Virus record (IMG/VR): IMGVR_UViG_3300045988_073563
From: a virus
Length of the DNA stretch: 64,000 bases
Strand: one strand, 5' to 3'
Position numbers and translations under genes: made by a program. A model generated the notes under the pieces. That model saw only the letters and a list, made by a program, of their open reading frames with translations. It was not told where the DNA came from and made no database searches. Shown here piece by piece: positions 1 to 51,428 of this stretch; the stretch's first letter is position 1, and the number at the start of each line of letters is the position of its first letter.

Positions 1-2
1 AT

Positions 3-257
3 AACAAAATGAAAATCTATGTAGATCCAGTAATGTAGATATCAGATAGTTTTAAACCATCAAGTAATAAGTATGCGGTTAATATTACTTATATAAAGAG
101 ACCTAAACAGTTTGATTACACACAGTTAGACGAAGAATTAGATCTACCTGAAGATGTAATGAATGAAGTTATCAATAGAGCTGTAGTAATAGCATTAGAA
201 AATATTGAATCACCAAGAACATCTACTAAATTACAGTTAAACCAATTATCTGAATAA
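3..257 (+). CDS. structural-module protein, 5' end cut by window edge; paralog of 259..924
   Basis: Frame is open from the window start to TAA 255-257, with one in-frame TAG at 36-38. The C-terminus ...LDLPEDVMNEVINRAVVIALENIES parallels ...TELPVDTHQEIVDAAVMMYIQQAAS of the next gene. Confidence 0.5.
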
Positions 258-258
258 T

Positions 259-924
259 ATGACTGAGAGACAATTCCAAATAGCATTTGAAAGATAGTTG
301 AATAATATTATACCGGGTTATAATATTATGAGTAAGCTGAACTCAGATACTATATTCTACTATATAAATAGAGCTAAAGACGAATATGTTAAACAGTTAT
401 ATAGAGCGTTTTAGCTTAATCAAGAATTATCTGATAAGTTACGTACTCTAGTAAAAACAGATAAATATGTTAGCATTGACTTTACAAGAACAGGTAATAG
501 ATGGTCAACAGACTACCCAGAAGGATATATGTATACTTTAGGGGAGCAAGCGACTATTAATATTTATAGCAACAAATGTCCTGCCTTGGTTTCTAATTCC
601 ACTGATGTAATTGAAGCTACTATTGAAACAGTTGATAGAATATTAAGTAATAGTCTATCAGAATACCACTTACATCACAATCAAGCTAGACCAGTTAGAT
701 TATATACAGATGGCAAAATAGTATTGATAACAGATGGTAATTACGGCATAAACGAATACCAGTTAACTTACTTAAGAAATGCCAAAGATTTAGGTAATAA
801 ACTAACAGAAGAGTACACTGAATTACCAGTTGATACTCACCAAGAAATTGTAGACGCAGCTGTAATGATGTATATACAGCAAGCTGCTTCTATGCAATAG
901 TCAGGTAAATCTGACAAAGACTAA
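259..924 (+). CDS. structural-module protein, 221 aa when TAG is read as sense
   Basis: ATG at 259 is in the same frame as listed ORF 529..900. In-frame TAGs at 295-297, 412-414 and 898-900. First non-TAG stop is TAA 922-924. Confidence 0.6.
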
Positions 925-1023
925 TGCGTTCATTGACGTGGAAATCTGAAATAAGGAAAGTAGAAGATGAACTAAGTTTACATGAGCGCGCATTTATGTT
1001 AAACTAAAAATAAAATTTAAATT

Positions 1024-2004
1024 ATGTTACAACACGTAGATATCGTATTGATCGGTAAAAATATCCCTGCATCATATACTACTGCTGATGCTTTGGCTGT
1101 AGGTGATGTTGCTTTGTTCGACCAGAATAGAGCTATCTTAAAAACTGCCGCTGAAGCTGCTAACGCCACTTCATTGTATGTAGGTGTAGCTCAGAATAAA
1201 GTTAATGTAACTATGCCTGATGGTTCAGTTGCTCAGAAAGCTAATATCAAATTCGGTAATGAAATCAAGAAAGATTCAAAACCTAGTGCTGTTATTGGTG
1301 AATATGTTGCTCCTGTTCAGGATAAAATTACTATTACCTTGACTGACGCAACTATCGTAGCTGGTCACAGATACGTTCTGAGAATGGTTTACAAAGATAT
1401 GTATGAAGCTCCGGGTCAGTTTACTCATACTTATGAAGTATATGCTGCTAGCACAGATGCTTCTGCTTTAGCTGCTGCTATCGTTAAGAAGATCAACAAA
1501 CACGCAAATCGTAGAATTAATGCTACAGTTTCTGGTGCTGTTATCACTTTGACTGCAATGGAAAAAGATGATAATGAAGGAGTTTATTCACTGTCTGAAT
1601 ACTCTACAGTAAGCATGGAAGCTAGTCTGTATGTTACTATTCCGGGAGCTATCTTGAGCAATTACCCAGAAGCTATTCCTGGTGCAACTATTACTAAGAC
1701 TGAAGGTACACCGGGCAAAGGTTACTGGAAGCAGGTGAGAGACGCTGAAGTACGTTTCATGGGTTACCAGGGACATGTATTTACAGGTGCTTATCCTATT
1801 GTAGAACAGCCGAGAATGGTAGAAGAAGGTGTAGAATACAACTATATCACTATCGAAAACGACAACAAATATCTTAGTAATGATAATCAGTATATCAAGA
1901 CTACTCCTCTGACAACTGAGGTTTATGTTAAGAAAGCTGAAGGTTTCACAAATTCAATTGTTGCTAAAGGTATTGAAGCTTTCATATCAGGAGAAGCTGC
2001 TTAA
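1024..2004 (+). CDS. putative major capsid or other highly abundant virion protein (326 aa)
   Basis: Uninterrupted ORF with no TAG codon, locally higher GC, TAA stop, followed at once by a hairpin plus T-run terminator. Role assigned from context, not from a recognised motif. Confidence 0.45.
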   Translation: MLQHVDIVLIGKNIPASYTTADALAVGDVALFDQNRAILKTAAEAANATSLYVGVAQNKVNVTMPDGSVAQKANIKFGNEIKKDSKPSAVIGEYVAPVQDKITITLTDATIVAGHRYVLRMVYKDMYEAPGQFTHTYEVYAASTDASALAAAIVKKINKHANRRINATVSGAVITLTAMEKDDNEGVYSLSEYSTVSMEASLYVTIPGAILSNYPEAIPGATITKTEGTPGKGYWKQVRDAEVRFMGYQGHVFTGAYPIVEQPRMVEEGVEYNYITIENDNKYLSNDNQYIKTTPLTTEVYVKKAEGFTNSIVAKGIEAFISGEAA

Positions 2005-2029
2005 TAGAATTAATTCAATCAATCATGAA

Positions 2030-2072
2030 GTGGGGCTGGTGGAGTATATCTCCCCGCTCCACTTTTTTATTT
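2030..2072 (+). terminator. rho-independent terminator after 1024..2004
   Basis: GTGGAG (2039-2044) pairs with CTCCAC (2057-2062); an alternative GGGG/CCCC pairing exists. Followed by TTTTTTATTTT. Confidence 0.7.
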
Positions 2073-2079
2073 TAATATT

Positions 2080-2697
2080 ATGAATAAAATATTTAATGTA
2101 ACCATAAAGGATAATCTAATGGTATTCAGTGTGTATACTAATATATCTATAGTAAATACTAATGATATAGTATTATACATTGACGAATGTCATAATATAA
2201 GCAATATATATTGCGAGAATCCAGATAATCATGATTACGTGTTGAACTATAATAATGCTAGAATCTCCTATAAAGAGATTGTGCGTGAAGGTGAAGAAAA
2301 GGAAGTAACAACAATATATGCATATGAAATAACAGTAGAGTCTGATGTATTATCAGAATTTGATACTAATATGAAGTATATCAAGATGTTTGTTACTACT
2401 GAGTATTATGCTAATGACTATGTAGATGGTGTATACTATGATCCTAATATCTTATATAATGCAGAGATAAAGATGTTGCGTAAGTATTGTCAAACTTGTT
2501 TAGACGATAGATAGATGCAACTTTTAATGCTAATAGTATTTAAGAGGCAATTATTAGAATAGGCTATTGCTACTGCTCATAATAAAGAAGCACTATAGTT
2601 TTACTTGGATTTATGCAAATTGTTGAACGTTAATATTAATACTAAAACTGTTAATACAGGGTGTAGAACATGTGTTAATGGAGTATGTAAATTGTGA
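2080..2697 (+). CDS. hypothetical protein with Cys-rich C-terminus (205 aa)
   Basis: Listed ORF 2080..2514 continues in frame through three TAGs (first at 2512-2514) to TGA 2695-2697. The tail contains CQTC...GCRTCVNGVCKL. Confidence 0.55.
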
Positions 2698-2701
2698 AAA
2701 T

Positions 2702-2914
2702 ATGTGCACATGTGATGAATTAAAATAGTTCCTATATATTGCATTGGATTACCATGGCAATATTGTAGTGATATCAGATTATGCTAAGTATCCTAATGCT
2801 TATGTGGATCCTAAAGATAATCAGATTACTTTTGATGCACCAGATGTTAAAGACTTTATTAAACCAGAAACAGAATTAATTTTTTAGAATGGAATATACG
2901 AAATTATTAGGTAA
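2702..2914 (+). CDS. small hypothetical protein (70 aa)
   Basis: ATG at 2702, two in-frame TAGs, TAA at 2912-2914. Overlaps the start of the fibre gene. No motif recognised. Confidence 0.3.
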
Positions 2915-5900
2915 AGTTACACTTACATGTGACGGTAAACATGATTCTGCTAAATAGTATGATAGACTTTGTTTAGTCTATGATAATGATTATAAGTCTT
3001 TTATATCTATAAAGGAAGTACCTGTCAACATTAGTATTACTAATAAGGCATATTGGCAACCAGTAAGTGCAATATCTGCTGATGGTGAAGACATAATGGT
3101 AGATTATGACTTCAACCTTAAGTTTGCAGATAAAGAATATGTACCAAATCAATTTAGTGGTTTGGGTAGAAAGTTATTGCGCAAACGTATTGTTAATAAT
3201 ATCAATCTACTTCAACAGTCAGATATAAATAGGGCTGGTACTATTTATAGAATACAGTATGATTATAACCTACAAGGTCAAACAATACAGATACCAGAGA
3301 ACTGTGTATTGTTCTTTGATGGAGGTAGTATATCTAATGGTACTATTATACTGAATAATACTTTAGTATTACCGCAGTGTTTAGACATTGCTAAGAATAT
3401 TAAATGTAATATTAGCGGCAATTATCAGAATGGTCAGATATACTATGATTCTACTTAGGATAAACTCATTGCTGTAATAGGACAGAAGTTAGTAGACTTA
3501 TCAGAAAAAGGATCAGGTAGTGGTGGTTCAGTAAGTAATTATACTTGGATTAGATACGCCAATAATGCTAGTGGTCTTAATATGACTATGCAACCGCAAG
3601 CTGATACTACACACATAGGTATTGCTGAAAACCAAGCTGTAGAAACTCCTAGTTCAAATCCTGTAGATTATACTTGGATATTATTTAAAGGACCACAAGG
3701 AGAAAAAGGTATACAGGGAGAAAGAGGTATACAAGGACCTCCGGGAGAGAAAGGTGAGCCCGGTAAAGATGGTACAGACGGTAAACCGGGAGAATCAGTT
3801 AAACCAAATTGGAATACATGGGTATTCAAACAATCAGAACTACAACCAAGTAAACCAAACTTCTTTATACCTACTCCGGGAGCAGCAGGTATTGACGGTT
3901 GGTTTGATGGTCCGGGATCTACTGGTAGATGGTGGATGTCAATGGGTTTGGTAGATGGTAGTACAGACACAGTGGCTACTTGGACAGATCCAGTACAATG
4001 TACAGGTGAAGACGGTAAGACTAATAGCTACATGGACTTCAAGTATGCTAAGAGTGCTGCTGAGACTATTCCACCTCCATTGGATAGAACTGTGAGATTC
4101 CCAGAAGGATGGACAGATGAACCACCAACATTGATCAAAGGTGAATTTATGTGGATGATTAATGCGTTAATCGACGAAAATGGTGATCTTGTTGATAAAT
4201 GGGTAGGTCCTATTAGAATTACAGGTGAATCAGGTCCTCAAGGAGAACCGGGAGAAGGATTACCCGGAGTATCTTATAAGACTGTGTTTGCATATAAATC
4301 TAGTGAAGAAGAACCTGAGAAACCAGTAGGTGGATCATGGGATTCTGAAACTAATGAAGTAGTATATCCAGAAGGATGGCAAGGTAATGATCAGAAACTG
4401 ACTCCTCCAATATGGATGTCAGATAGAACATTTACTTCTAATCCTGATATAGTAGAGGATTGGTCTACTCCAATTAAGATATCTGGTGCAGATGGTAAAC
4501 CCGGTGCAGACGGAAAAGCAGATGAATTCATATATAAACGTACAGCAACTGCTGGCGACTTAGATAGACCTGATACTCCAACTAGTGAATAGATTGATGA
4601 TTACGTACCTACTGACTTAGGATGGACCGATACTCCTAGAGGAGTGACTACTACTTATCAAGGAGAATGGGTCAGTACCAGAAGTAAGAAAGATGGTAAA
4701 TGGGGTCCATTCAGTCAACCTGCATTATGGTCTAAATGGGGAGCTAATGGTCAGGATGGAGATGGTGTACAGTATATATTCTATAGAACTACTACCAATA
4801 ATGACCCAGATAATCCAACTCCAAACAATACTAATTCAGATGCATATCAGGAAACTGGTGACTTTGAAGGTATAGAATATATCCCGGGAGGTTGGTCAGA
4901 TGATCCAATCGGAGTAACAAAAGAATATCCATATGAATGGGTGTGTCAAAGAAAGTTCAGAGGAGGTAGATGGAGAGCATACACTGGACCATCGTTGTGG
5001 GCTAAGTATGGTAAAGACGGTCTTGATGGTTTAGGTAGTATTGTATTAGACTTAGATAATGAAATACAGTCAGTAGCTACCGATAGTTTGGGTAATGTAG
5101 TAGGTGGTTTACCACTTAATGCAACCCTAAGTATGTACTATGGAACTGTGCAATTAAATCTAAGCTCATTAACTGTACGTCCTCCAGAAGGAGTTATAGC
5201 TACTGCAGATAGACAATCTGGTATAATTACTGTTACATCTATTGCTAATACTACAGATACTACAATACGTATACCAATTGATGCTAGTACTGTGTATAAC
5301 AATGAATTGATGGAACGTACTACGTATCTTACTATTAATAAGATCAAACCCGGTGCTGATGGAGAAGATGCTATTCTATATTCATTAATGCCTTCTGTTG
5401 ATGCTATCCATGTAGATAAGAAAGGTGTATCTGATGTAGTATTTATCACTTGTGGTATTAAGAAAACACAGGGTGCTAACACAGTAGAGTTATCTCAATT
5501 ACCAAATGGTTATGCATTTAAATATGTAATTGATGAAGAGCTTGCTGAGAACTATACTATAGATCAAAACATATCTACTTCTTCAATTAAGAAGAAAATA
5601 ATATTTATGCTTACTAATGGTGGATAGTTAGTAGATAAAGAAACTATCTATAAGATTAGTGATGGTAAAGACGGAGTAGATGGTGTAGGAGGTTTGGTTA
5701 CAGACTTTGATAACGACATGATAGCTGTAGCGTGTGACTCTGAAGGTAATGTAGTTAGTGGATTACCTGTAACATCTACAGTAAGTATGTACTATGGAAC
5801 TACTAAACTTACATTATATGAGAACCCAACATTGGGTGAAGTAGCGGGAGTAACAGCTACGTCGTCTGTATTAGGTACTATTACTATAACTGCTATTGAT

Positions 5901-8342
5901 AAGTCAGCTCCTGAAGTAATAAGACTACCAGTATCCGTTAAAGCAGTATATCAAGGTAATACTTACATAAGAGACGTCACCTTGACAATTACTAAAGTTA
6001 AACCTGGTGCTGATGGTCAAACTCCTAAGATATATCAGTTAGCTCCATCTGTAAGTGCTATCCATGTGAATAAGAATGGTACACCTTCTGTATCTACTGT
6101 ATCTTGTGGTATAAGACTGTTTGAAGGAGATTCTACTACTTCAGTAGAAGGTACTCCATATGGTTATTACTTTGCTTATAAGATTGATAATGCTAGTGAA
6201 ATGAGATACTATGCTAATAATACTATTAATACTAGTGGTATAGTGGCTTATATTACATTCTCGTTATACGACCAAAGGAATAGTAACAGTATACTTGTAG
6301 ACCAAGAGACACTATATGTATTGAAAGATGGTGAGGACGGAGAATCTGGATCTGTACCTAACTGGAGTACTTATGTATATAAGAAATCTAATTCTAGACC
6401 TGCTAAACCAACATTTAAGAATCCTAGACCCGGTACTACTGGTATAGACGGGTGGTTAGATTATCCTACTACTTCAGACGGTCAATGGTGGCAATGCGTT
6501 GGTATGGTAGATGGACCTAAAGATGAAGTACAAACATGGTCTGAAGTTATACAGTTAAATGGTAAAAATGGTGAAGCTTTAGATGGTAAACATACAGAGT
6601 TTAGATTTATGTCTATGACTAAAGGTTATGCTCCTAGTATTGCTACTACTGTTAGAAATCCGGCAGGTTGGACTACTACTGTACCAGTAGTTAATAGCTA
6701 CGAATACTTGTGGATGTCACATGCTGAGATAGCTGCTAATGATGAACTGATTGGAGTATGGGATCAACCTGTTAGAATTAGTGGTGAAGATGGAGCTGCA
6801 GGTGAACCGGGTGTTAGTCTATATACTTGGATTAAGTACTCTGATGATCAGCCTACATCTGATTCACAGATATATGATAAACCTAATATGTACACTAAGT
6901 ATATCGGTTTAGCTTATAATCAAACTAGTTCAGTAGAAAGTACTCGTTATACTGATTATGAATGGGTTAAATGGGTAGGTAATGATGGTGTAAATGGTAC
7001 TAATGGTTTAAGAGGAAGACTTGTATATCCAGCAGGAACTTATATCCATAATAAGACATACGAAGCTACTGATACTCAAGCACCATTTGTATTACAAGGT
7101 GAAGCATTCTATGTAATGAATAAAACTACTACATGGAATGGTCAAAATCTAGGAGTTACTCCAGAACAAGATTGGAATTCTAATGGAATAAATGCTACTT
7201 GGATATTGATGGATGACTTTGAAGCAGTATATACTAAGTTACTGATTGCAGACAATGGTACACTTGGAGATTTTGTGTTCAATAAAGAGTACATGTTTAG
7301 TAAACAAGGTACTGATGCACTTGGACAAGAATCTACTGATTATCAGAACTTTAATAGTACTGTTAAACCATTTTCATTTACAGATACATCTATATGGGCA
7401 TATAATTTTAAAAGTAGCAGTAGTAATTACAATGGAACTATAACAAGTGATACTATAACTATTACTGGTAAGACATCGTCTTCTTCCGCAACGGATTATT
7501 TAATATGGACTCAAAGTAGTCATAAAGATCTTCCAGAATTTAATATAAATGTGAAAGGCGTTTCTAACAATTCCAACATATATCTATTATATAACTATAT
7601 GACAGAAGGTGGAGTAAGAGAATCTATAAGAATGGATTACGATGGAGTTTATGCTCTACCTAAAAGTTTTATACAAAGTGGTACTCTAAAGTATGGTTTA
7701 TAGTTGGTAGTAAATCTTGCAAGTACCTATTTAAGTGAGAATGTTATAGTTACTTTATTACCTAATAAATTCAATCCAAATTTCTAGGTAAATGGGATTA
7801 CTGGCGAAGTAACAATGAATAAAGCAACAGTAAAGGGAAGATTTAGTACTAATGCTGTAATTCATAAAGTTACTTCATTTACTACTACACATTCTCTAAC
7901 TATACCTAATGATTATTCTTTTAAAACTTTATATATAGTTAGATAGAGAGACGATGTAACTGTAACCAATAATACTATAGACCTATACACAGCTGCTTTT
8001 GCAACTCCGGATCCTGAATTCTACCCAGATGAATATTAGGCAGATCAAATGGTATAGGCTTAGCTAAATATAGTAAACTTAACTAGTTATAATGTAGATA
8101 TACACAAAGGACCTAGTAGACTAGATCCAGGTTTTGTATTACCTAATTCGGGCGGTTTTGGAAGTTGTGATACTATTCGACTATACAATGGGGGTAATGT
8201 TACTATAGACTTTATATATTTTAAGAATGAGTTATACGCCATGGGTAGTTAGACTAATGAATTAAGAGTAGTAAAAAATTCTGGAGATTTTGTGAAGACT
8301 ACAATAGGAAGTTATACATATGCTGTTAATAAATCATTCTAA
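2889..8342 (+). CDS. giant tail fibre / receptor-binding protein (1817 aa)
   Basis: ATG at 2889 follows an in-frame TAA at 2877-2879. Listed ORFs 3096.., 3582.., 4644.. and 5694.. all lie in frame 0. Eleven in-frame TAGs (2955, 3456, 4590, 5625, 7701, 7785, 7944, 8037, 8055, 8061, 8250) and no TAA/TGA until TAA 8340-8342. Contains collagen-like G-X-Y repeats and duplicated Ig-like and PNW...GIDGW modules. Confidence 0.8.
3690..3788 (+). repeat. collagen-like Gly-X-Y repeat inside fibre gene
   Basis: GPQGEKGIQGERGIQGPPGEKGEPGKDGTDGKP, 11 consecutive G-X-Y triplets. Confidence 0.85.
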
Positions 8343-8344
8343 AA

Positions 8345-8602
8345 ATGACAAACAAAGTAGACAATAAATTAAGATATAGTGCTATCATAGACAATAGGTC
8401 TGTGGTAGCAGCTATATGTATAAATGAATTAGAGTTTCTAATAACACAAACTGATTTCGTACAGGACAGATAGATACTACAATCTATGATTTGTGGTTGT
8501 GGTAGATAGATTGATACTGATAATCCGTTGAAGTTAGAAACACTGTGTAATATTATAGATTGTAAAGTTTGTAATTCATGTAAGACATGTAACACTTTTT
8601 AA
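8345..8602 (+). CDS. small Cys-rich protein (85 aa)
   Basis: ATG at 8345, two in-frame TAGs, TAA at 8600-8602. Ends ...CNIIDCKVCNSCKTCNTF. The listed - strand ORF 8326..8595 is its antisense shadow. Confidence 0.5.
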
Positions 8603-8638
8603 CGTTAATAAATATTATTAATTTTAAAACTAAATATT

Positions 8639-8956
8639 ATGTTGATTGATTTTAGAAACATTACAATTAAGAACATTGAGGGAGAAGAATCTACAGTTGA
8701 TATTTCTAAAGATTTAGGAAATCTATTGTATAATTCTGCAGTAAGTCAAGAAGGTTTAGAAATATCTAGAGAACTGTATCATAATGGTGAAATGGATGTT
8801 ACTAAAGAAAATGTAGAAGTACTTAAAGGCATTATAGCTGGTAACTTCTTAGCAGTTATACAAGAATCTTTGAACCCTATTTTTGATAAGATCATGAACA
8901 CTGAAGAAATCGAAACTAGTGCGGAGGAGATTAAGGATGAACAAACAACTTGCTAA
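8639..8956 (+). CDS. hypothetical acidic protein (105 aa)
   Basis: Intact ORF with a TAA stop and no TAG. Confidence 0.5.
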   Translation: MLIDFRNITIKNIEGEESTVDISKDLGNLLYNSAVSQEGLEISRELYHNGEMDVTKENVEVLKGIIAGNFLAVIQESLNPIFDKIMNTEEIETSAEEIKDEQTTC

Positions 8957-9128
8957 ATATACTGATAGAGAATTGTTAGAGTGGATCTACTTATTGTAGA
9001 TCCATATTCTATCCAAAGTAAACGAGATAGATAACGACGATAAACAGTTTGGAATGAACTTAGCTGCAGATTTATTAGGTAGTGTAGTATATGATGCTCA
9101 ACCAAGAACCACAAGATACGCAAATTAA
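8937..9128 (+). CDS. small hypothetical protein (63 aa)
   Basis: ATG at 8937, one in-frame TAG, TAA at 9126-9128. Lies upstream of the HNH-endolysin pair. Confidence 0.35.
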
Positions 9129-9221
9129 AAAGATATATGTTGGATTATATTTATGAAATATTTCATATAAACAAGAACTTAGATATACTTTTCCCGTTTC
9201 AGTATAAAAAAACTGAACAAT

Positions 9222-9749
9222 ATGTGGAAAGATATTAAAGATTACGAAGGTTTATATGAAATAAATTCATCTGGACATATTAGGAGAAAAGGCAGTGCAA
9301 AGCTGTTAAAACAAGCTAAAGGAAAAGATTATATGCAAGTTAGTTTATGTAAATGCAATCATAAAGTCACTAAAACAGTTCATAGACTAGTAGCAGAAAC
9401 TTTCTTAGAAAACCCTAATGAACTACGTTGTGTTAATCATAAAGATGAAAACAAGTTAAATAATAATGTAGAAAACCTTGAGTGGTGCAGCGCAAAATAC
9501 AATACTAGTTATGGTGACTGTATACAGAGAAGAGCAAACTCTCATAGAGGGAAGAAACATAGATATTCAGAACATGTTAAATGTAGAAAAATAACCCAAC
9601 AATTTGACAATAATATGAATTTAATAAAAGAATTTAACAGCTTAACAGAAGCATCCAAAAGTACAGGTATTGCTATACAAAATATTTCAGCTTCTTGTTT
9701 AGGTAAAACAAAAGAATCCGGTGGATTCATATGGAGGTATAAGACATGA
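9222..9749 (+). CDS. HNH homing endonuclease (NUMOD4-like N-terminus plus HNH)
   Basis: The N-terminus WKDIKDYEGLYEINSSGHIRRKG is the typical NUMOD4-type start. Also ...CVNHKDENKLNNNVENLEWCS, an HNH-like motif. No TAG codon in 175 codons. Its TGA stop overlaps the ATG of the endolysin. Confidence 0.75.
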   Translation: MWKDIKDYEGLYEINSSGHIRRKGSAKLLKQAKGKDYMQVSLCKCNHKVTKTVHRLVAETFLENPNELRCVNHKDENKLNNNVENLEWCSAKYNTSYGDCIQRRANSHRGKKHRYSEHVKCRKITQQFDNNMNLIKEFNSLTEASKSTGIAIQNISASCLGKTKESGGFIWRYKT

Positions 9750-10147
9750 AATATTTTTCTATCGCAGAATTAACAAAATCTACTACAGCTACAGCTAAGA
9801 AATTAGATAATACTCCTACAGAGTAGGCAGAGAAGAATCTAATTACTCTAGTAGAAAAGGTACTTGATCCACTTAGAGAATTGTATGGTAAACCTATTAT
9901 AGTTAATTCAGGTTATCGCAGTCCAGAAGTAAATAAAGCAGTTAAAGGAGCTAAGACAAGTCAACATGTATTAGGAGAAGCTGCTGATATAACAGCAGGT
10001 AGCAAAGAAGAGAATAAGAAGTTATTTGAGTTAATCAGAGATAACTTTGAGTTTGATCAACTTATTAATGAGAATGACTACTCATGGATACATGTATCAT
10101 ATAGAGAAGGAAGACTTAGAAAACAAATATTAAAGCTTGGTAAATAA
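9746..10147 (+). CDS. endolysin, peptidase M15 (zinc D-Ala-D-Ala carboxypeptidase-like) family
   Basis: MKYFSIAELTKS...SGYRSPEVNKAVKGAKTSQHVLGEAADI matches the M15 H-x(6)-D type motif. One in-frame TAG at 9824-9826. TAA stop. Confidence 0.75.
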
Positions 10148-10149
10148 AG

Positions 10150-15006: not shown

Positions 15007-15019
15007 AAAATTAACTGTT

Positions 15020-15550: not shown

Positions 15551-15577
15551 ACATATAAAATTAAATAATTTTTTCAT

Positions 15578-16108: not shown

Positions 16109-16112
16109 TAAT

Positions 16113-17381: not shown

Positions 17382-17390
17382 AAATATAGA
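17368..17390 (+). other. 7-bp inverted repeat just 3' of the VR, spanning the target stop codon
   Basis: TCTATAT (17368-17374) pairs with ATATAGA (17384-17390), with a 9-nt loop. The position matches that of the hairpin/cruciform element known downstream of the VR in other DGRs. Confidence 0.35.
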
Positions 17391-17420
17391 ATTTTGTAAA
17401 ATAATTAGGTTGTTCTCTTG

Positions 17421-17521: not shown

Positions 17522-17641
17522 CCCCAAAACAGAAAAAATATTTAAAAAGCACTGTCAGAGAAGACCTTACCTCTTGGTAAAAAACGACATTTTAAAACAC
17601 TGTATTAGTAGCGTAAGCGAAAGTTCGGTATGGGATTTCAG

Positions 17642-38900: not shown

Positions 38901-41900
38901 AGAAACAGAAGTAAAGCCTGTTGCTAAGGTTAATAGAAGAGCTAAAGCTCAAGAATTAGCTAGAACTATAAAACCATCAGATGCAAATGCTCCTAAAGTA
39001 GGAAGATTTATGACTTCTGATGAGATAAAAGAATATGCAGATGGCTTGAATCAAAAAGTAGCTACTGACAGTTTCGTATATCTGTATGATTAGGATGGTA
39101 AACCTCAAATGTTTATCAGAAGTATGATGGAAAAGCTTTTCCACGAGGTTGGAAGAGAAGTGAACGGATTATATTCTATAGAAAGTAACGAAATAGGGCG
39201 TGAAGAACAAGATCTTAAAGCTGCTAAGCAATGGTTGATGGATAAACTTGGTCTTGCTGTAGATCAGGTTAGAATATTCAATGGAGTAATGAGATCTGCT
39301 TCCAATGGTCCTAGAGTGTATGGTGTTACAAGAATGTCTGTTGGTAATGTAGCTAATATATTATTAGGTAAAGGAGCAGGTTTGGGTATATAGTATCATG
39401 AGGCTTGGCATTATATAAATATGCTTGTACATTCTGCTGCTGAAAGATAGATAATATATGAAGATTTCATTAAACATAATCCAGAGTATAAAAATAGAAC
39501 AGTAAATGAGATAGAAGAAGCTATGGCTGAGGATTTCCGTAATTGGGCTATAGTAGAGAATGCTAAATGGTTTCAATTAGGTTATCAAACAATAAAAGCT
39601 TTTAGAGCTATAAAAGGATTCGTAAAATCATTATTTGGTATATCTAATAATTTGACTACTAATATATATAGAAATATCAATAAAGGTAAGTACAAAGAAT
39701 ATTAGATGAATCAATCTTCTGTTGATGAATTTAATAAAGCTTATACAAAAAAAGGAGTGTATTTCTCAATACCGGGAGTAGATCAAGATAGGTTAAAAGA
39801 TATGCCCTCTATTATTAATCCGGATGTATTCTATAATGTAGTAGATTCTCTTACCAGTACTTTATTATCTATATTCAACATACGTAAGGCACAAGATATA
39901 GATAATTTAAGCTAGAATTTAGATTATTTACCTTCTATAATTGAAAGTAATATGATGGCAGGTATAACTCCAGAAGAGAATGATCAGCTTATAGAAGAAG
40001 TATTAGATAATTGGGACATATTCAAACAGTCTTTGGTAGAACAATTGAGTTCTCTTAACATAAAAGCTGTAGAAGTTGAAGAAAAATCTGATTATGATAC
40101 TGGAGAAAAGAGACCTGATGAGAAATATGATAGGGTATCTTATGAATTTTCTAAGAAACTTAACATGTCCTTCAATGCTAAACTATTCTTCTATTCTATA
40201 CCTAAAATGGAATATGATAAATCTAGAAAACTAGTACCAGTAACTGATCCTATTTTTGGTCTTAATATGACAGAATCTTTTGATGTTACTTGGAATAAGA
40301 TCATGGAGAATTTGTGGGACATTGAAAGATGGGAGGATTTAGAAAGCAGATGTGCTAGATTAGGCAAAGCTGACCCGTTCTTCATATCATTACTTAATTA
40401 TATAAGTGGTGCTAATAAACCTGACGAGAATACATGTACTCAAATTCTCACTACCATTAAGAGTGCAAAAAATGAAATGACTACTGTACAGTTCTAGGAT
40501 GCATTTTAGAAAGTAAAAACTAGTGCTGGACTAGAAGAATTTGTAAAAGATATTAAGACTACAGTTAGAGCTAAGTCTGGAGAATGGAGAGTAATTGATT
40601 CAGCAGTATTCAGATATCAGAATAAGTATCCTAGGCAATGGGGTAGATTATTTTATGTATCTGGAATGATAGATAAAAGCGATGTAAACAATTTTGTAAT
40701 AGACTCTGAAAAGTTAAACAACTTAGAGATAAGATTAGAAATAATAGCTGACGAATTGTCTGAAATAGCTCAACCTTTCATAAATAAAAAAATGAAAGGG
40801 TCTAATAAATTATCAGAAGATCAGATAAGACAAACTACAGTAAAAGCAAAATAGGATTTTGTAGAGATACTTAATAGTATTGGTATTGATGTAGATACTA
40901 AAACTATAGATTATCTGTTATATGGTACTGAAAGTTTAGATAAAAAACTACCTACAATAGAATCATTTGATAAATTATATACCATATTGAGATCTACTAA
41001 GAAAGGAAGTGCTAGAAACCAAATAATAGGTAATCTAAATAAGTTACAAGAAGGAGAATCTAAAGATTTGAAATTAGACAATCCTTTTCCAGCTGCAGAA
41101 GGTAGTTTCATACAAAAATTAGCTATAGCACACGGTAAATCTCATCCTAATCCTACTGAATTTAGTGTAACTGGACCTAATAACACTACTATTTATCCTA
41201 TTACTCAAAATAACTATATGTCAGACAGAGTTAGATGGTTTAATCAAGATGCTTCTGAAGTTGATAAAACACTACTAGCCACTTATAATAAACACTCTTT
41301 ATTATTAGGGGCACTGAAATAGGGTTCTAAATTAAGCCTCAGTACTCTTATTGCTGTGCGTAATGCTGATAATAGAGACAGTAGAGACTATTTCTAGATA
41401 TCACCTACTGAGGACTACATTGCTAAACTTACATTAGCTCATCAGAATAGAATCGTTATGCCAACTATGGCAGATAAAAAAACATGGTATTCTATAACTG
41501 GAGTTAATCTATTTCATGATTTATTAAGCAGATCTAGAATGACAGAAATACAAACAGAGAATGGTATTCAACAAATGTTTGTAGAAGATGATATGTATAG
41601 GTATTCTGATAATACTCTACAAGCCATATCGGATTATCTGCTAGATGAATTCAATGCTGTATACGATTACTATATACACAAATCTGAAGTAGAAGAAAAC
41701 CCTAATTTACGTATTGATAATTATCATGGTAAAATAAAGAATGGGGTTATGGACAACTCTGGTAATGGTGGTTATTTTAGGTATTTCTCTTCACTTAAGA
41801 TGAGACAACAAGATGGTACATATAAATATGTTCCTTTAAATCAGATGTTGTGGGCTTGGTCTAAATTTGATTATGATAATGGTGGTAATTAGATGGAGAC

Positions 41901-44900
41901 AAGATTAAAACAACTCCGAAATACTTTATTTGGAGACAAAGAAGCTCTATTTGATGCGATAAATGCAACATTATAGGATAAAGTCCAAGAGGAGATAACA
42001 TTCCTAGTAGATAAAGGAATAGTAAGAAGAGATGGTACAGAACTTGAAAATGTATTACTACCTACAAATATAGTGAAAGAGTATACAGATAGATCTAAAA
42101 ATCTAACCTCTGGTGATACATCTAGGAATAACAAGTCTGCTGCCGTTTATTCTATTATCGCAAATCATGTAGTAAATGAAATAGTATCTATAAATGAAAT
42201 TGAAAAAGCATTCGTAGGAGATCCTGCTTACTATAAATGGAAGAGAGATAAAAACAAACCATGGATAATAGTAGAAAGATCTGTAGATAAAATTAAACGT
42301 CTTGGTTCTGTATTGTCTACTGGGGATAATCTTAGAACTTTTTGGGGAGATGGAGATGTAAGAAATAATTCTAAATTTACTGTATTACACATGAGTGATA
42401 ATATGGTCAAATCTGTAAAATTCGATGAATACAAAAAGATGTTTACATCTGCTGAAGTAATGAAATATTTACAAAGGAAGAACCCTAACATTAGTCAGAG
42501 GCAACTTATTAATATGGTAAGTAAGGATAGTATTAATAAGACATTAAAAACTATTGACGCTAAATCAAGAAAATCAATTGAAGATTCTGTGGAAAGACAA
42601 ATCGCAGCATATGGGGTTAACAACAGAGGAGAAGGTAATATAAATTAGGCGGATGCTGCAGTTTATATTAGACCAGCCTTATATAAGAGAATTATCCAAG
42701 CTGTAGGAGAATGGTCACCAGAAGTTGAAACGGCTTTTGAGCTTTTAGAAAGTGATAATCAAGAGTGGTTGTCTGATCCAAAACAGTATGCTCAAGCTTT
42801 GGAAACGCTTATTAAACCATTGAAGATGGTGTACTTCGGAAATCACAACTTGACTAAGTTAGGTTTGAATGTTCCAGTATTTGATAAGATGGCAATATTC
42901 CCATTATTTAAAGTAATGGCAAAAGCTGATAACTATCATTTATATCAAAGAATGAACAATGATGAGCTGGGAACCATAGATATGCTTACGTTTGAATCAG
43001 CAGTTAAAGTGGGAGGTAGATAGAAATTTGCTCCATATAAAGATGCAGATAATTCTAGATTTAATATAGAAGATTTAAATAGACCTTCTACATCTACAGT
43101 AGTTGAAGAAACTAATTTCGAAGGTTTAGATACTGATAATTCTAAGTTACCTACATATATACAAGATCTTAGAAATTTACGTCTGTAGATGAACACAGAT
43201 CCTCATGAAAGCGTAGATAGATCTCTAGGTACGCAGTTTGCCAAAGTAGCCTTAAGTAATTTAATAAAAGATAGACCATATGGTTTAAATAAAGATGTAG
43301 AATACACCGGTAGATAGATTATAGATAATATATTTGGAGCTATAAATAGATTATCTGACATTGGAGCTCAAAAAATATATGATGAATTCTTAGAAGATGG
43401 TAAACCTTCTGAATAGAAACTATCTAAGTTCTTAATATCTCAAGGAAAATCTAGTGGTTTATCAAGAGATGCTTTATCTTCATTTGAAATAGACAAAACT
43501 ACTAGACAAATCAAGGTACCTTTGTCAGCCCAAAGTAATAGAAGATTTGTAGAAAGTAGAATAATATCAAGAGTAGGAAAAACTGCCATTGATATTAATA
43601 CTCCCGGTGGATCCGCTATCCAACATGCATTCTTTGGATTTAAAGATACTACTGGAGTATAGAAGCAATATCAAGTAGGTAGAGCTTTTAATGATGGTAA
43701 GCCTTTAAATCCTCTTAATAGCGATGGTAGTATGGATTGCATGTTGAGTACTAATTTCTTTAAACATATAGTTCCTAAGAAATATGCTTCTGATTATACT
43801 GCTATGAGAGACTGGTTGTTAGATAAGAAGATAATTGGGCAAGATGCTAAACCTTTTGCATTAGGTTATCGTATTCCAACTCAGGGTCTTTCTTCTACAT
43901 GTTCATTAAGAGTTACAGATGTGTTACCAGAATCTATGGGGGATGTTATAGTAGTTCCAGATGATTTTACTGCTATGACAGGATCTGACTTTGATATTGA
44001 TAAGCTATATATAGCTACAGGTTATTATGATAAAGATGGAAATTATTTGCAATGTAATTGGGACGATTTATCTAGTAATTCTGAAAAATAGCTTGTTAAT
44101 GGTCTGATAGACATGTATAGAGTTGCCATATCAGATGATAGTAACATTGATCAAAGTAGAGCACCTCTGGATAATCTTACAACTAAAGTAAAAGAAGAAA
44201 TAGTTCCTTTAGTTATGGGTAAATCTAAAGAGGAATGCAAGCCTATGTATGAACTCCTTCCTTCTTATTAGTTATTTAAGAAATTTGAATATACTGGAGG
44301 TAAAGATGGTATTGCTCCGTTTGCTCTTGCATCAACCAATCATGCTCTTACTCAAGCTCTAAACTTAAAAATGGATCTTGGATCAGTAGGAGATACATAT
44401 AATTTAGGGAATATAAATGATGTATTGTCACAAGATGGTGAGAGAATATTGGATTGGTTATCTGCAATGATTAACGCCCATGTAGACGTTGCAAAAGATC
44501 CATACATTATTAATCTTAATGTTAATTCTGTTACATATAGTATGACAGAGTTCTTGTTAAGGACTGGAAAAGGTGAAGTAACATTTTATTTCTTATCCCA
44601 ACCAATACTTAAGGATTTTGCCAATACGTTGATAAAGCTTAATGGGCAATATGGAGTAGATCCTAGTGATGTTAGTTATTCTGAGCTCATGGATGATACT
44701 TTATTTGAGTTGAAAAAATAGTATAAAGAAGAAGCGGAAGAATACATAAGTACTCTACCTAAAGAAGAACAGAAGAAGTTGCTAAATATATTGGATAATT
44801 GGGACGATAAAGATAAAGGAGTTGACAAATCATTAGCAGTAGATCCTTTAAAACTTGAAAAATCTTTGAACAGCAATATAAAAGGAGAGAGAAATCTTGA

Positions 44901-46758
44901 TTTCTATATTCAACAACTATTAGTAGCAGACGCTTATTCTAAAATGTTGCCATATGCTGAAAGACTAGCAAAACTAGTAAGATTATCTCAGATAGATACT
45001 AAAAAATATGGTAATACTCTATCACAACAGGCTAACTATAGCAAATAGGTATTTGACTTTATAAGAAAAGAAGGAGAATAGTTTTATCAGGTAGATGATA
45101 AAGGTTCTGTTATAGAAGGAGATGATGTAAATGCTTTAATGAACTACTATGTTGACAGTTTTCTAATGAAGAAACTTACTAATGCAGTAGATATTCCAAG
45201 AAACATACTATCAAGTTCGTTCTTACAAGCTACAGATATGTACAGTGGAATGTTCGTAAGTCTTGCAAATGTTATAACAGGAGATAGATCTAATATGAAC
45301 AAACAAGTTGCTACTAAATTAGATTCTATCATAGATAGTATTATAAGATCTAGAATAGCAAATAGTATAGAAGAAATGCATCTTGACGATGGAGAATATG
45401 CTAGAATGGTATTAGGTGATTGGACTGTTCCTAAAAGACTGTTTCAATTTAAAGCAGCTATTAGAAAGAATGATAATGGTAAATATAGTAGCATGTTAAC
45501 AGGAGATGGAACTATTAATAATTCATTCTTAAATTACTTAGTTCCTACTGTAGCTACTGATCTTACAGATACGGATTCAATAACTTTGTTGAACAACTCT
45601 ATGAGTAACAGTGCTAATTTCGAAAATAGACTTATAGCATACTTTAGTGATTTATTACAAAGTGACAATGAAGCTGTTAGAAAGTTCTCAAAGAGATTGG
45701 CTAAATACGCATTCTACACTTCTTACGATAATAAGAGTCCAAATTCCTTTGCTCATTTAATATCTAGTCAATATAGATTAGATACAGGGTATGCTGATGA
45801 AGTGAGAAGAACTATTCATGACATGAATAATGGTAGTTGGTTAAACAACATACTTAGCGATATTGATGAACCTACGTTAAGTAAGTATACTTCTTTAGCT
45901 ATGATAATAGCTCGTAACAACGCTCATGATCATGAAATAGTTAAGAATGTAACTAGACCAAAATCAAATTCTGGTAATTCATCTGCATTTATATATGAAA
46001 CAGCTCCTTGGAATGATGAATCTCAATATTTAGTTAGTTTCGCTACTAAGTCAAGGAAAGATGAAAGAGATTTCTTAGCCATTGATTATCCACAAGGTAA
46101 TAGTAGAAATACTGTTTTATATGTTAAAGCTGGTAAAGTAGAAGCATACGATAAGAAGAAAGCTAAGAAATTAGGTCAAGCTACACAAACTATATATGTA
46201 GCAATACCAAGATTAGGTAGAACTAAAGGTAGTGTCAACTTAAGTGAATACTTCAAAGATTACAATCAATTATCAGACTTTTCAGAAAACAATATTAATA
46301 CAATGACTGGCGAATAGATTATAGAGTATTTTGGTGATCATGAAAAGTTTAGATTAGCTGTGAAAGGATCTAATTTTAGCGATGTGGATATTACATTCCT
46401 ACCAAGTCAGTATATAACGGAAGATTTTGTATTTACTAAAGATCCATACAATCAAGAGGTGAACAATAATGAACCTACTCTTGAAAGTAATACTCCTAAA
46501 ACTGTAGCTATGGAAAGCAAGAAAATAGATAAAGAAGTTGCAGCAGAATCTGGTTTACTTAATAGAGATAATTTAATGAATAAAGTACAACAACAATTAT
46601 TAATAACTCAAGCATTGTCGGAAGCTGATATTCAATCAGATCCGTTATCTGGAGTAGAATCATCTGGACTTGATATTACAGGCATGTTTACAACAGAAGA
46701 TGATTTAAGTAAAGATAATTTTTCAGACGAAGCATTTAACATTTGTAAAAGTAAATAA
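32995..46758 (+). CDS. giant multidomain virion polyprotein (4587 aa) with RNA-polymerase-like DFDID motif and an HExxH motif
   Basis: ATG at 32995. Twenty-one listed ORFs from 33241 to 46360 are all in frame 1. I read every gap: 46 in-frame TAGs, no TAA/TGA, and TAA at 46756-46758. Contains GYRIPTQG...GSDFDIDKLY (DFDID at 43987-44001) and YHEAWHYI (39397-39411). Confidence 0.8.
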
Positions 46759-46760
46759 TT

Positions 46761-49700
46761 ATGGCAAAAGGAATATGTCCAATTTTGAGTGACCCAAAAG
46801 TAAAAGCAGAATTTGAAGAATTAGTAGATGCATTGGGTGAAGTATAGGCTTACGCTGTGTGGGATTAGAATGGTGGGTACAGTTTAGATAAGGCTCCTAA
46901 TGGGGAGCCTTCTATACTGTTTGAAACATTATTGCAACACAATAATGGTAATAGAGTAAATGCTATATAGGCTAAAGCTAAAGTATACACAAATAGTTTT
47001 AAAGCTTGGTTTGGAGATTGGGTGAATGATCCTAAAAATTCTTCAAAAGTAGTAGACGAAAATGGCGAACCATTAATAGTATATCATGGAACCAAATAGG
47101 AATTTGAACAATTTTCCCCTGAAGAAACAGCCAGAGCAGATGTTGGTTTTTTCTTTACTTCAGATATACACTATGCTAATCAGTATGGTAAGTTTATAAT
47201 ACCTGTATATTTATCTATAAAAAATCCTTTTCAGTCACAAGAAGAATTAAATTTTGACACTGTAGAAACAATAATGACTAATGAAGATACTATACGAAAT
47301 ACGGATGGTATAATTGGTCACGATTAGAAATTAGATCTTAATCAGTCACAAGGTGTTGAGTATGTAACTTATACTAACAAATAGATAAAATCTGTAGATA
47401 ATAGTGGGTCCTTTAATCCAAATTCTGCAAATATATTTGATAGAGAAACATCTCCGTTACAACAACAAACTATTTATCAAATAGACGAAGCTATGTAGAG
47501 ATTTCGTGCTCAAAGATACGATTTTGACTCTACATTAGATTCTATAAGACAATTAATTACCAATGCTGTATAGGCTCGTATAAAAGCTATCTAGGGGCGT
47601 AATATTTAGAATAAAACTGCTTTATTAGTTCCGTTGGAACAATAGCTGGCGTCTTTAAAAAATCCCAATATTACATCATTACAAACTATAGTATTCTGTT
47701 TATATGATATAAATAGGACTATGACCGCTCCAGTTAATGCTATATTACAGGCACAGAAGAATCTTAGAGAAGGTAGAGATAGTGGGTTTAGTAATCTAGC
47801 ATTAGTTCAACTCTAGTAGGATTACTTTGGCATGTACAATAATGTGTTAGAAGAAATAGCTAAGAACATATTTGATTCGAATATATATCAAGATCTATTA
47901 GGTAAAGAGAGCTTTGACTAGTTAAAAACTATGATAAGTAATATGCGTACACAGTTTGCTGCAGCAAAACAAGGTATAACGGAACTTACTACAGATTTAG
48001 CTCAAAAGACATTACTTCAATATGGTATAAAAGATGAACTTAGCAGAACAGAACTTGAAGAATATGTTAGTTCTGAATTAATAACTACTGAAAATGACGT
48101 AACTACTTTAATGCGTTGGATCTCTGCCGGAGATAAAATGAATGATAAGGCGGCTCGTGTTATATTTGACATGGTAGCAAATGCTAATAATAGAGTAAGA
48201 TTCAATACTCATAAATTTGGTAACAGAATGCTACGTCTGTAGTAGAATGTAGCAATTGGTGAATAGATGAAATTATTTGAGTATGATTCCGATGGAAAAA
48301 AGACAGGATATTTTATTAGAGATAGAAAGTATGGAGAGTTTATGAACAACTTGGAAAATGAAAGAAAAAGATTGAAAACCAAGTATAATGTTCCGGAAGG
48401 TTAGAAGCTACCTTTAGATAAAGAAGCTCGAACTAACTTTAATAAAGAAATGAATGAATGGCTAAGTAATAATTGTGAAAGAAGATACACAAAGAAGTAT
48501 TATGACGCTTTTAATTCTTTAAGTCAAGAAGCAAGAGATGCCAGAGATGCTATCCAATTTAAGATATACAAACTCCTTGATGATGTAAGAGATAATAAAG
48601 GTAGAGTACATATGGAAAATTTGACAGAATCCCAATGGAATCAATACCTAGATTATAATACTTAGAAAAAGCAATTAATGTCTAGATACTATGAAAATGG
48701 TACTCCTAAGACAGATATGGATTTACAAATTGCATAGGAGTTAACGGATCTTAATAAAACTCTTCACGAAGGTATGCATTATGTAACCAATATGGAGAAA
48801 TTTAACGAAGCTAAGGCAGAAGCTAAAAAGAATTTAACTTCAGAAGAGTATGAAAAATGGAAAAAAAGATATACAAGAGAAGAGATAAGTGAGAAGTTTT
48901 ATAAGCAATTAGCACAGTTAAATAAAAAAACATACGGAGATGAATATGCCCAATTACAAGAAATGAGAGAAGACCTAACCAAACCTTATAGAAATGAATA
49001 TACTGGAGGTTTGGATGTTAGGAGAATGTCTTCTCAATTATTGGGTACATTAAAATCTATAGACAGATAGATGCGTAAAATCCGTAAAAATACTCCAAAA
49101 GTTAAAAAGCAACAGTAGGCTGTAGAATTCGAAGATATAGCAGAGGTAATACCGACTGAACAATATAAAATAGATAAAGCTAATGCTCTTAAACGCGGAA
49201 TAGAGTTTTATGAAGCTTGGGAACTTACGCATCATATAGTATATTATGTTGGAGATCAAGAAGTTAGAAGACCAAATTGGTATTATACTAGAGTAGTTCC
49301 AAAAGACAAAACCCTAATAAATACAGAAGCTCCAACAAGAGAATTCAGTGAGATAGATCCAAATTCTGAGTATTTTAATAATGATTTTGATACTAACATT
49401 GATGAATATTATCAGCCAAAATCGACTATCTATACCAACAAAGAGTACTATAGCCTGTTTAAACCTGTAAAAGATAAAAATGGTGAAGACGTTGCTACTA
49501 AGAATAAAGCTTTATGGGAGTTATATAAAGGATTGTTAGGTGGTATGGAAGAATCTAACGACAAAGTTACTTATCTTACAAGAAACAACCCATACAGACT
49601 TCCATAGATGAGTGGTAGCATGTATTAGTATATGAAAAATGATGGTGTTATCAAAGGATTCTTACAATAGACAAAACAAGGTATTGTAAAAGAAACTGAT

Positions 49701-51428
49701 GATGTAGGATTTGTTGATGCTCCAACAAGTAGACCAGATGGATCTGAACAAAGATTAATACCAACATATTTTATTGACCCCATTAGGAATGAAAAAGGAG
49801 AACCTGATCCAAATAGAATAACTAATGACCTTGTAGGAGCTGTTATTGCATATTATAAGATGGCTGAAAATTTCAAATAGAAAACAGAGATACAACCAGA
49901 TTTAGAAGTTATTAAAATGCAATTAGCAAATAGAACTTTTACAGGAAAACCTATAGGAGTAGATGCCACTGGTAAAAAAGTATACAAGCAAAGTAATAGA
50001 AAAGAAGGTAAGGATACTAACGTATATAAGTTTGTAAGTAAGTTTATAGACATGCAAGAGTATGGAGAAGAAGTTAAAGCTCATTTACAAAAAATAAGTA
50101 GTGATAGTAGAATAGGAAAGTTCTTTGGCTTAGCTGGAACTGAAATCAACTGGAGTAAAATAGCATTATCTGTTAAAAATTTCGGTCAATTAATAGGTTT
50201 AGGATTGAATTTAGCAGTAGGCGCTACTGGTATGGCTACAGCTTTTTTACAGCAGTTAGGATTTGTTGCTAATGGAAGATATTTTGATTTTTCTTCTTTT
50301 TCTAAAGCATATTTCAATATGGTTAGTAACATACTAGGTATAATGCATTATATGCATAGTACTACTACGGATAATAAATACGTAGCTTGTATGCAACATT
50401 TTGAAATAGGTACTGAATTCTAGAACGCTTACCGTAATTCTAACAGAATAGGTATCATAAATACTATTTCTAGAAATTGGGCTTTTGGAATTTTCTCATT
50501 TTCAGATTTCGTGATTAAAGGTACACTATTAAATTCGATTATGAATAACTATAGATACTACAATGGAAAATTCTATAATAAGGAATAGTTCATTAATATC
50601 ATAGGAAATAAAGAAGATGCTAATAATATATGGAAATCACTTCATAGCACATATGATATTATAGAAATAAAAGATGGTAATATTCATATTGAAAATAAAG
50701 CGTATGCAAAAGCATTTGCAGAAGTAGAAAATCAAATAAGTAATGCTGCTAGATCTTTAGCTGCTACTGCAGATGGACAATTAACAGAAGAACAAAAAGC
50801 ACAATTTACTAATAATGCTTTAGGTTCTATAATAATGATGTTTCGTAATTATATACCTAATCTTATTAATGAAAGAGTAACTATGAAAAAATAGTATGAC
50901 TATGATTTAGGTATGAAACGAGAAGCATTATATAGAACAGTAGGTAGAGTAATACCTATGCTAATTAGAGATTGGAACAGTAGAAAATCTTTAGATTCAT
51001 CTGATATAGGTAATCTCAAACAATTTGGCTTTGAAATGTCTACTATTATGTTATTATCAATGGTAATAAAACCATTATTAATACAAGCGGCAGATGATGA
51101 TAAAGATAGTTGGGTTATAAATTTCTTAGCTTTATTAGTTACTAGAACTGGCTTCGAGTATTCTAATCAATATAATCCTTTAGATTTGCTTAATACTTTA
51201 ACTTCTGTAAGTTCATTAATTAACATAGTTAACCCATTTACAAACATAATGTCTTTGAATGAGATGTATAATATGTTTAATGACAATAAACGTATTAAAT
51301 ATGGTCCTTACAAAGGAGATACTAAAGTAGAAAGATGGTTATGGAAAATGACTCCATTTAAAAACATTAAAGAGATTCAAGATCCAGCACTTAAAAGGAA
51401 GTATTACGAATAGTTATACAATAAATAA
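46761..51428 (+). CDS. large virion protein (1555 aa) with N-terminal ADP-ribosyltransferase-like (ART-PolyVal-type) domain
   Basis: ATG at 46761 is in frame with 47931, 48450, 48774, 49917 and 50913. Thirty in-frame TAGs, TAA at 51426-51428. Contains VVDENGEPLIVYHGTK...VGFFFTSDIHYANQYG...PVYLSIKNPF...NKQIKSVDNSGSFNP. Confidence 0.7.

Follow-up and report, generated by a model that had tools for sequence, protein, structure and literature searches.

TAG as a sense codon, best fitted by glutamine, in the late genes of a crAss-like gut phage

We analyzed a stretch of 64,000 nucleotides (the window) from IMG/VR virus record IMGVR_UViG_3300045988_073563, which comes from a crAss-like gut phage (Crassvirales, Suoliviridae) close to Buchavirus and covers around two-thirds of its genome. 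The analysis supports TAG as a sense codon throughout the late module on the + strand (positions 1-51428), with TAA and TGA still serving as stops, and comparison with homologous proteins supports glutamine (Gln) as the best fit for the residue inserted throughout this module. Recoding of TAG to Gln in late genes is already known for this phage family, and the window is one more example that leaves the picture unchanged. We are highly confident that there are two decoding states, in which early genes would be read by the host's standard code and late genes with UAG as Gln by means of a phage suppressor tRNA with a CUA anticodon, tRNA(CUA).

The longest late gene (32995-46758) starts with ATG and runs for 4587 sense codons, 46 of them TAG, with TAA or TGA present only as the final TAA. 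At this base composition, TAA and TGA together should account for around 6% of random codons, and a frame of this length without them is not a product of chance. Four further frames, each extending from ATG to TAA and otherwise devoid of TAA and TGA, contain 11 (2889-8342), 16 (10150-15006), 10 (25461-29627) and 30 (46761-51428) in-frame TAGs. The initial annotation, made from the letters of the sequence, had proposed these five frames as interrupted by TAG only; its TAG counts were exact, and a search for in-frame TAA or TGA found none. With TAG as sense, the gene map of the + strand comprises 32 open reading frames (ORFs) holding 184 in-frame TAGs in 16,942 codons, a rate of 10.9 per 1000, alongside 23.4 for CAA and 9.4 for CAG. 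All 32 terminate in TAA (24) or TGA (8), in keeping with the earlier claim that TAG alone is reassigned. Coverage, measured as the share of a strand lying in ORFs of at least 100 aa, pointed the same way when compared strand by strand. On the + strand (1-51500) it rose from 0.695 under the standard code to 0.972 with TAG as sense, and neither TGA-sense (0.696) nor TAA-sense (0.711) brought a gain; on the - strand (51500-64000) the standard code already gave 0.946, and TAG-sense 0.955.

The bad fragmentation that the initial annotation had foreseen under the standard code is therefore real: with code 11, around 30% of the + strand drops out of ORFs that reach 100 aa, and the 4587-aa gene falls into ~47 pieces. 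Such contigs need gene calling with code 15 or a dual-code caller, for example Mgcod (10.1101/2022.06.29.495998), and proteins that entered databases through code-11 calling would stop artificially at TAGs. A deposited case is Dulem virus 42 (PP511876.1), where 12 separate 'hypothetical protein' features lie over the homologue of the 1555-aa protein encoded at 46761-51428; this virus is recoded, and its record was probably given a standard-code annotation.

Among deposited genomes, cr52_1 (Buchavirus copri, Suoliviridae, Loutivirinae, NC_055888) and cr56_1 come nearest, with a nucleotide identity to the window of ~75% over 40% of the giant gene only. Gene order is identical in cr52_1 over the whole window. 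TAGs fall in the same late genes of cr52_1, including 37 in the giant RNA polymerase (RNAP) gene and 26 in the next gene, and cr52_1 shares the reverse transcriptase and target of a diversity-generating retroelement (DGR), the GIY-YIG endonuclease, the endolysin and the tail ring proteins. Many of its proteins are 35-70% identical to their counterparts in the window, which represents another species. IMG/VR contains this species as contigs whose overlap with the window shows 96-99% identity, the longest being 101 kb. In-frame TAGs are also annotated, in their hundreds and in the same genes, in the RefSeq records of cr52_1, cr109_1, cr115_1, cr125_1 and cr7_1; the last four, which are recoded distant Suoliviridae, have 129-231 in-frame TAGs in about four large late genes. 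The compared large late genes of standard-code cr50_1 and of crAss001 have none.

The residues that stand opposite the TAGs of the window point to Gln. In cr52_1, where the Gln background is 3.2%, Gln occupies 49 of the 119 sites that are informative, a further 35 TAGs of the window face a TAG, and the reverse comparison of cr52_1 TAGs with the window gives the same Gln signal. Because the cr52_1 Gln codons at these sites are more often CAA (26), which is two changes away from TAG, than CAG (19), the signal reflects the identity of the amino acid and not mutational proximity. Proximity of CAG and TAG was ruled out as its source, given that CAA is the commonest codon and that the signal persists in homologues from a standard-code phage and the Protein Data Bank (PDB). 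Gln is likewise the top residue opposite TAG in standard-code cr50_1 (12 of 72), where the spectrum of residues (Q, K, E, S, A, N, R) resembles that found opposite genuine Gln. A likelihood comparison over the 20 amino acids, with substitution tables drawn from the same alignments, put Gln first in every subset, by 9.7 (standard-code relatives only), 40 (distant recoded relatives), 124 (cr52_1) and 178 (overall) ln units, margins that the shared ancestry of the relatives inflates though all subsets agree.

Two solved proteins agree with this assignment. In the RNAP of Cellulophaga phage phi14:2 (6VR4), TAG, written x, stands opposite Gln at three sites (INxADA/VNQTDA, SEKxLVN/KSEQLQN and PSYxLFKKF/PLYQLKLKF, window first). 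In the homing endonuclease I-TevI (1MK0), the segment STYL-TAG-RAYNKYG of the window aligns to SIKLQRSFNKHG, again with Gln opposite TAG. The initial annotation had put Gln at two TAGs of this nuclease; the first (HHSTYL-TAG-RAYNKYG) is indeed Gln in I-TevI, and the second (YLE-TAG-KYL) is Asn. Its broader proposal that TAG stands for Gln is borne out by close, distant and standard-code relatives and by both solved proteins.

A candidate suppressor tRNA was found at the homologous locus of related phages. In cr52_1 a tRNA(CUA), annotated as tRNA-Gln, lies directly upstream of TerL. We walked upstream from the window through IMG/VR contigs, anchoring on a conserved 22-mer and sampling 16 contigs, and all 16 carried a CUA-anticodon tRNA or tRNA-like element at the homologous site just upstream of the late operon. 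In five of the 16, the part that overlaps the window matches it at 96-99% identity. One of the sampled contigs, 040416, is 98.7% identical in the overlap and has a canonical tRNA(CUA) with an Rfam score of 41 bits. The distance from the tRNA to position 1 of the window is ~12-13 kb as estimated from locus L009; the two loci of contig 040416 (L007 and L038) do not overlap. The C-type phage tRNA begins with UGGGGUAU, a start that we take to be like that of bacterial tRNA-Gln.

The tRNA site itself is variable, with at least five different CUA tRNAs at this one position in related phages (L009, L012-L016, L029, L032-L039), and it looks as though the suppressor is replaced as a cassette at a fixed site. 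One variant, which we call E-type, is carried by nine contigs (L014, L023-L028, L030, L031), whose copies fall into four distinct sequences; an example lies at L014 7253-7331 in IMG/VR contig 3300045988_030976, which is 98% identical to the window over 1-10147. The E-type folds as a full cloverleaf with anticodon loop CUCUAAA, two bases between the acceptor and D stems and a 5-bp anticodon stem. Single-sequence minimum free energy folding of the tRNAs was uninformative (z ~ -0.2 to -0.8), and covariation was used instead: 99% of cells in the E-type alignment pair, compared with ~44% for slid partners, and at five pairs both bases have changed, the acceptor stem accounting for four of these and the T stem for the other. 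The T loop reads AGCAGAA or GGCAGAA, and the 12-nt D loop has no GG; its UGCU is complementary to the AGCA of the T loop, and those bases are invariant in the alignment. From these four sequences, the E-type is a candidate suppressor that escapes tRNA detectors, an eventuality foreseen by both Yutin et al. (2021; PMC7886860) and Borges et al. (2021/22; bioRxiv 10.1101/2021.08.26.457843). Provided that it is functional, it would account for at least some crAss-like phages that appear recoded but suppressor-less, and it would be a natural tRNA of a bacterial system with a rebuilt elbow. Just upstream of the suppressor there is a second tRNA-like sequence (L014 7140-7242; also in L009, L023, L029, L034 and L037), which scores 35 bits against the Rfam tRNA family, receives no ARAGORN call and has a 32-nt insert in the anticodon region containing GCGCCCUAAAGU; possible identities are a tRNA with an intron, a class II tRNA and a pseudogene.

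Internal TAG is essentially absent from the early or replication module on the - strand (51488-63998), which encodes an exonuclease-like protein, metallophosphoesterases, AAA ATPases, a DnaG-like primase, a DnaB-like helicase and a DNA polymerase. The initial annotation had described the - strand genes as intact in the standard code, and this holds for 14 of the 15 genes >100 aa but fails for a DUF1064 nuclease gene (54725-55117, - strand), whose relatives are annotated as 'Holliday junction resolvase'. This gene opens ATG-ATG-TAG, with the TAG as codon 3 (55109-55111), and as no ATG, GTG or TTG follows between that TAG and ORF codon 115, its translation needs TAG read-through. Homologues in cr52_1, cr109_1, cr115_1 and cr125_1 have TAG in the same N-terminal Lys-rich stretch, those in recoded cr7_1 and standard-code cr50_1 have no such TAG, and DUF1064 is the sole early-module gene with internal TAGs across the compared genomes. 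This pattern in the sequences suggests that an N-terminal TAG gates translation of a late-acting, resolvase-like nuclease inside the early module. In the RefSeq record of cr52_1 the DUF1064 gene is unannotated (63624-64022, - strand; L002 13624-14022); it has three in-frame TAGs, and a 249-nt 'hypothetical protein' overlaps its start.

Gene ends in the early module are also informative. The DnaB-like helicase gene (59042-60016, - strand) ends ISF-TAG-TAA-TAA, the tandem stop lying at 59042-59050, and the ending in cr52_1 is identical; an early gene cut by the end of the window (63303-63998, - strand) ends AAAA-TAG-TAA (63303-63308). A TAG-TAA tandem stop is safe with or without TAG suppression. 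The helicase of standard-code cr50_1 has a lone TAG terminator. In cr52_1, the - strand genes hold nine 'in-frame' TAGs, all within the last 40 codons and most within the last 20, which probably mark where the early genes really stop, the code-15 annotation having run past them. Within one infection, TAG thus appears to carry two meanings.

Where the recoding begins can be seen in cr52_1, in which 12 + strand genes before the tRNA(CUA) hold a single TAG in ~1,300 codons, and just after it the TerL gene has 11 TAGs and the portal gene 10. The recoded block begins at the tRNA, which is the start of the late operon, and it is the late transcription unit that delimits it, not the strand. The initial annotation had called the recoding module-specific; this stands in a temporal sense, per transcription unit, but not as a property of the strand, given the essentially TAG-free + strand genes ahead of the cr52_1 tRNA.

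These observations would fit the following course of infection. The early genes, which are almost TAG-free and consist of the - strand replication module here together with the + strand genes upstream of the tRNA in relatives, would be translated by the standard machinery of the host. A phage suppressor tRNA(CUA), most probably charged with Gln, would be encoded directly upstream of the terminase and late operon, outside the window. As it accumulates, UAG would be read as Gln and the late genes, including those for the virion, the DGR, lysis, a homing endonuclease and the packaged RNAP, would be translated. The 184 late in-frame TAGs would in this way act as a translational gate, keeping late proteins off until the suppressor is present, and TAA and TGA would remain stops throughout infection. 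Suppression must be efficient, as inefficient read-through of a gene that holds 46 TAGs would give essentially no full-length product. We infer that the tRNA is carried by this very genome and charged by the glutaminyl-tRNA synthetase (GlnRS) of the host, and the timing is deduced in the same way. Several components can be joined into one proposal, which we put forward tentatively and with rather more doubt than conviction: near-identical genomes would swap CUA-tRNA cassettes of at least five unrelated-looking kinds, one of them without the GG/T-Psi-C elbow, and TAG would gate a resolvase-like nuclease.

Of the explanations that compete with a phage-encoded, Gln-inserting suppressor, the one under which the TAGs are not decoded, being either marks of pseudogenes in a defective phage or assembly or sequencing errors (systematic CAG>TAG), is effectively refuted. 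Nothing positive speaks for it, except that standard-code annotation would resemble massive fragmentation, as with the 12 fragments of Dulem virus 42. Over 16,942 codons the frames are broken by TAG alone and not once by TAA or TGA; the 35 TAG positions common with cr52_1 occur at ~70% protein identity, five RefSeq relatives have the same pattern, there are independent contigs with 96-99% identity, and ORF coverage rises under TAG-sense in further contigs of the clade. The commonest counterpart codon is moreover CAA, not CAG as systematic sequencing error would have it. It is also most improbable that TAG is sense but encodes another residue (Glu, Lys, Tyr, Leu, Trp or pyrrolysine). After Gln, the residues that most often face TAG are Glu and Lys, but Gln is ahead of them by 178 and 211 ln units overall, respectively, and comes first in each subset; the spectrum opposite TAG resembles that opposite genuine Gln, and TAG faces Gln in I-TevI and the phi14:2 RNAP, two solved standard-code proteins. 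Pyrrolysine could be read from the ARAGORN label 'Pyl', which is given to any CUA tRNA, and from the E-type, which like tRNA-Pyl is without canonical D- and T-loop motifs. Judged by the generally known architecture of tRNA-Pyl, however, the E-type is built differently: its acceptor and D stems lie two bases apart, its anticodon stem has 5 bp and its D loop 12 nt. Pyrrolysine decoding was not supported, the CUA tRNAs being ordinary cloverleaves or E-type, although no dedicated search for pyl genes was made. Proteomics of related phages gave Gln (Peters et al. 2022; PMC9523058).

Decoding by a host-encoded suppressor or in a code-15 host, with no functional phage suppressor here, is very unlikely as well, although part of what favours it also weighs against our reading in terms of a phage suppressor. 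The window contains no tRNA, an Rfam scan of it having returned no family at the gathering threshold, and the suppressor is tied to the window through near-identity with other contigs; at the tRNA site of the 98%-identical contig 030976 there is only the non-canonical CUA tRNA-like element, which ARAGORN and Rfam both reject. Some recoded crAss-like phages have no detectable suppressor (PMC7886860; bioRxiv 10.64898/2026.08.21.746148). Further points that weigh against our own reading are competition by release factor 1 at UAG with no release-factor gene seen, neither such a gene nor one for GlnRS having been noticed in the window or in the cr52_1 annotation (100,000 of 103,665 bases), the ancestry effect on the likelihood margins, and the fact that Gln peptides at TAG are known for two other crAss-like phages only (PMC9523058). 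Against host decoding stands the search for a CUA-anticodon tRNA, a check proposed in the initial annotation, which found none in the window itself but a tRNA or tRNA-like element at the homologous locus in all 16 contigs and in cr52_1. The compensatory stem changes of the E-type imply selection as a structured RNA. Early genes, furthermore, avoid internal TAG and some of them end in TAG or TAG-TAA, from which it follows that the host reads TAG as a stop at the start of infection.

The system closely resembles code-15 recoding in other crAss-like phages, in which the structural and lysis block is recoded, replication genes keep the standard code, a tRNA(CUA) is present and Gln is inserted. This pattern has been described and validated by Yutin et al. 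(2021; PMC7886860), who found late-gene TAG to Gln recoding with suppressor tRNAs in the Delta group (Suoliviridae), by Borges et al. (2021/22; bioRxiv 10.1101/2021.08.26.457843), by Peters et al. (2022; PMC9523058), who detected Gln peptides at TAG in two crAss-like phages, and in the Mgcod study. We see no essential difference from these cases; the TAG-gated DUF1064 gene and the non-canonical tRNA are unmentioned in the available text of those papers. It had been suggested that extension of the recoding to a DGR, the lysis genes, a homing endonuclease and the giant RNAP gene was new, which does not hold, as all of these genes are present and likewise recoded in cr52_1. The small, testable additions made here are the TAG gating of DUF1064, the TAG-TAA tandem stops, the hotspot for suppressor cassettes and the CUA tRNA that evades detectors, and they bear on the timing of the code switch and on why some recoded phages seem suppressor-less. 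Lak megaphages and other TAG-recoded gut phages share with this phage the use of late-gene TAG for an amino acid and standard-code Prevotella/Bacteroidota hosts but belong to unrelated lineages with much larger genomes, some of which encode release factor 2, not seen here (Borges et al.). In Escherichia coli, the well-known suppressor supE (glnV44) places Gln at UAG by means of a tRNA-Gln whose anticodon is CUA. The likeness to supE lies in a body of the tRNA-Gln type that keeps its Gln charging despite the CUA anticodon and decodes UAG; supE differs in being a weak chromosomal suppressor, with UAG kept as a stop, whereas dozens of UAGs per gene are involved here.

The late module is syntenic with that of cr52_1, and all genes described from here on lie on the + strand. 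The 4587-aa giant virion RNAP gene matches in its C-terminal part the phi14:2 gp66 RNAP (6VR4, E = 8.5e-37), with the catalytic TGSDFDIDK aligned (DxDxD), and the 1555-aa RNAP-associated protein that follows is a homologue of crAss001 gp49. Upstream, the 1388-aa virion structural protein (25461-29627) is a homologue of crAss001 gp44, and two genes with four TAGs each encode crAss tail ring protein 1 (24553-25464; PF24228, E = 1.5e-115) and crAss tail ring protein 2 (22721-23377; PF25702, E = 1.6e-76), both found with Pfam. A 326-aa protein (1024-2004) is 86% identical to its counterpart in cr52_1 and 85% to that in cr109_1, and few late proteins of the clade are as well conserved. It had no Pfam, PHROG or PDB sequence match, and a capsid protein is a guess at its identity; a PHROG scan of ten small late proteins gave matches to families of unknown function only.

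The genes for a 1817-aa virion or tail-fibre-like protein (2889-8342) and for a 1618-aa protein with collagen-like Gly-X-Y runs (10150-15006; runs at 14143-14268 and 14350-14412) occupy a tail-fibre or receptor-binding region that is heavily rearranged relative to cr52_1 4903-20007, with patchy matches of 25-45% identity. The genes flanking it are 70-90% identical to cr52_1, an arrangement typical of mosaicism in host-range genes. The first Gly-X-Y run (GPKGDTGEKGEKGD-TAG-GP-TAG-GLKGDTGDQGPRG) carries both its TAGs in the Y position and is unbroken, just as the initial annotation had read it.

A complete DGR is present, in which the reverse transcriptase gene (17630-18664, two TAGs; PF00078, E = 1.6e-16) adjoins an adenine-specific pair of template repeat (TR, ~17417-17517) and variable repeat (VR, ~17261-17361). 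The VR forms the 3' end of the target gene (16113-17381, one TAG), the cr52_1 homologue of which is annotated as 'major tropism determinant'-like. All TR/VR mismatches fall at TR adenines (21 in the best 70 nt, none at other bases). The pair was detected by an ungapped scan that disregards mismatches at TR adenines; a default direct-repeat search and plain local alignment missed it, as ordinary repeat finders do because so many of the adenines are mutated.

The lysis genes are recoded, as had been claimed: the peptidase M15 endolysin gene (9746-10147; PF08291, E = 3e-22) has one TAG, and that of a LysB/FtsL-like lysis regulator (19292-19996), named from the annotation of its cr52_1 homologue, has nine. 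The translation of the latter shows a hydrophobic N-terminal stretch, and the TAG share of its Gln codons (0.53) is one of the highest among the late genes. Spanin genes have been reported as TAG-biased by Borges et al., and the position of this gene among the most TAG-biased of the window resembles what was described there for the spanin family.

Five late genes are free of TAG (1024-2004, 8639-8956, 9222-9749, 15578-16108 and 20035-20631). The 326-aa gene at 1024-2004 is TAG-free in cr52_1 too, which may indicate very high expression. The two homing endonuclease genes contrast in this respect: the GIY-YIG/NUMOD1 gene (23801-24556), a GIY-YIG assignment of the initial annotation now confirmed by Pfam and the I-TevI alignment, has six TAGs, and the HNH/NUMOD4 gene (9222-9749; PF13392, PF07463) has none and may be a recent arrival.

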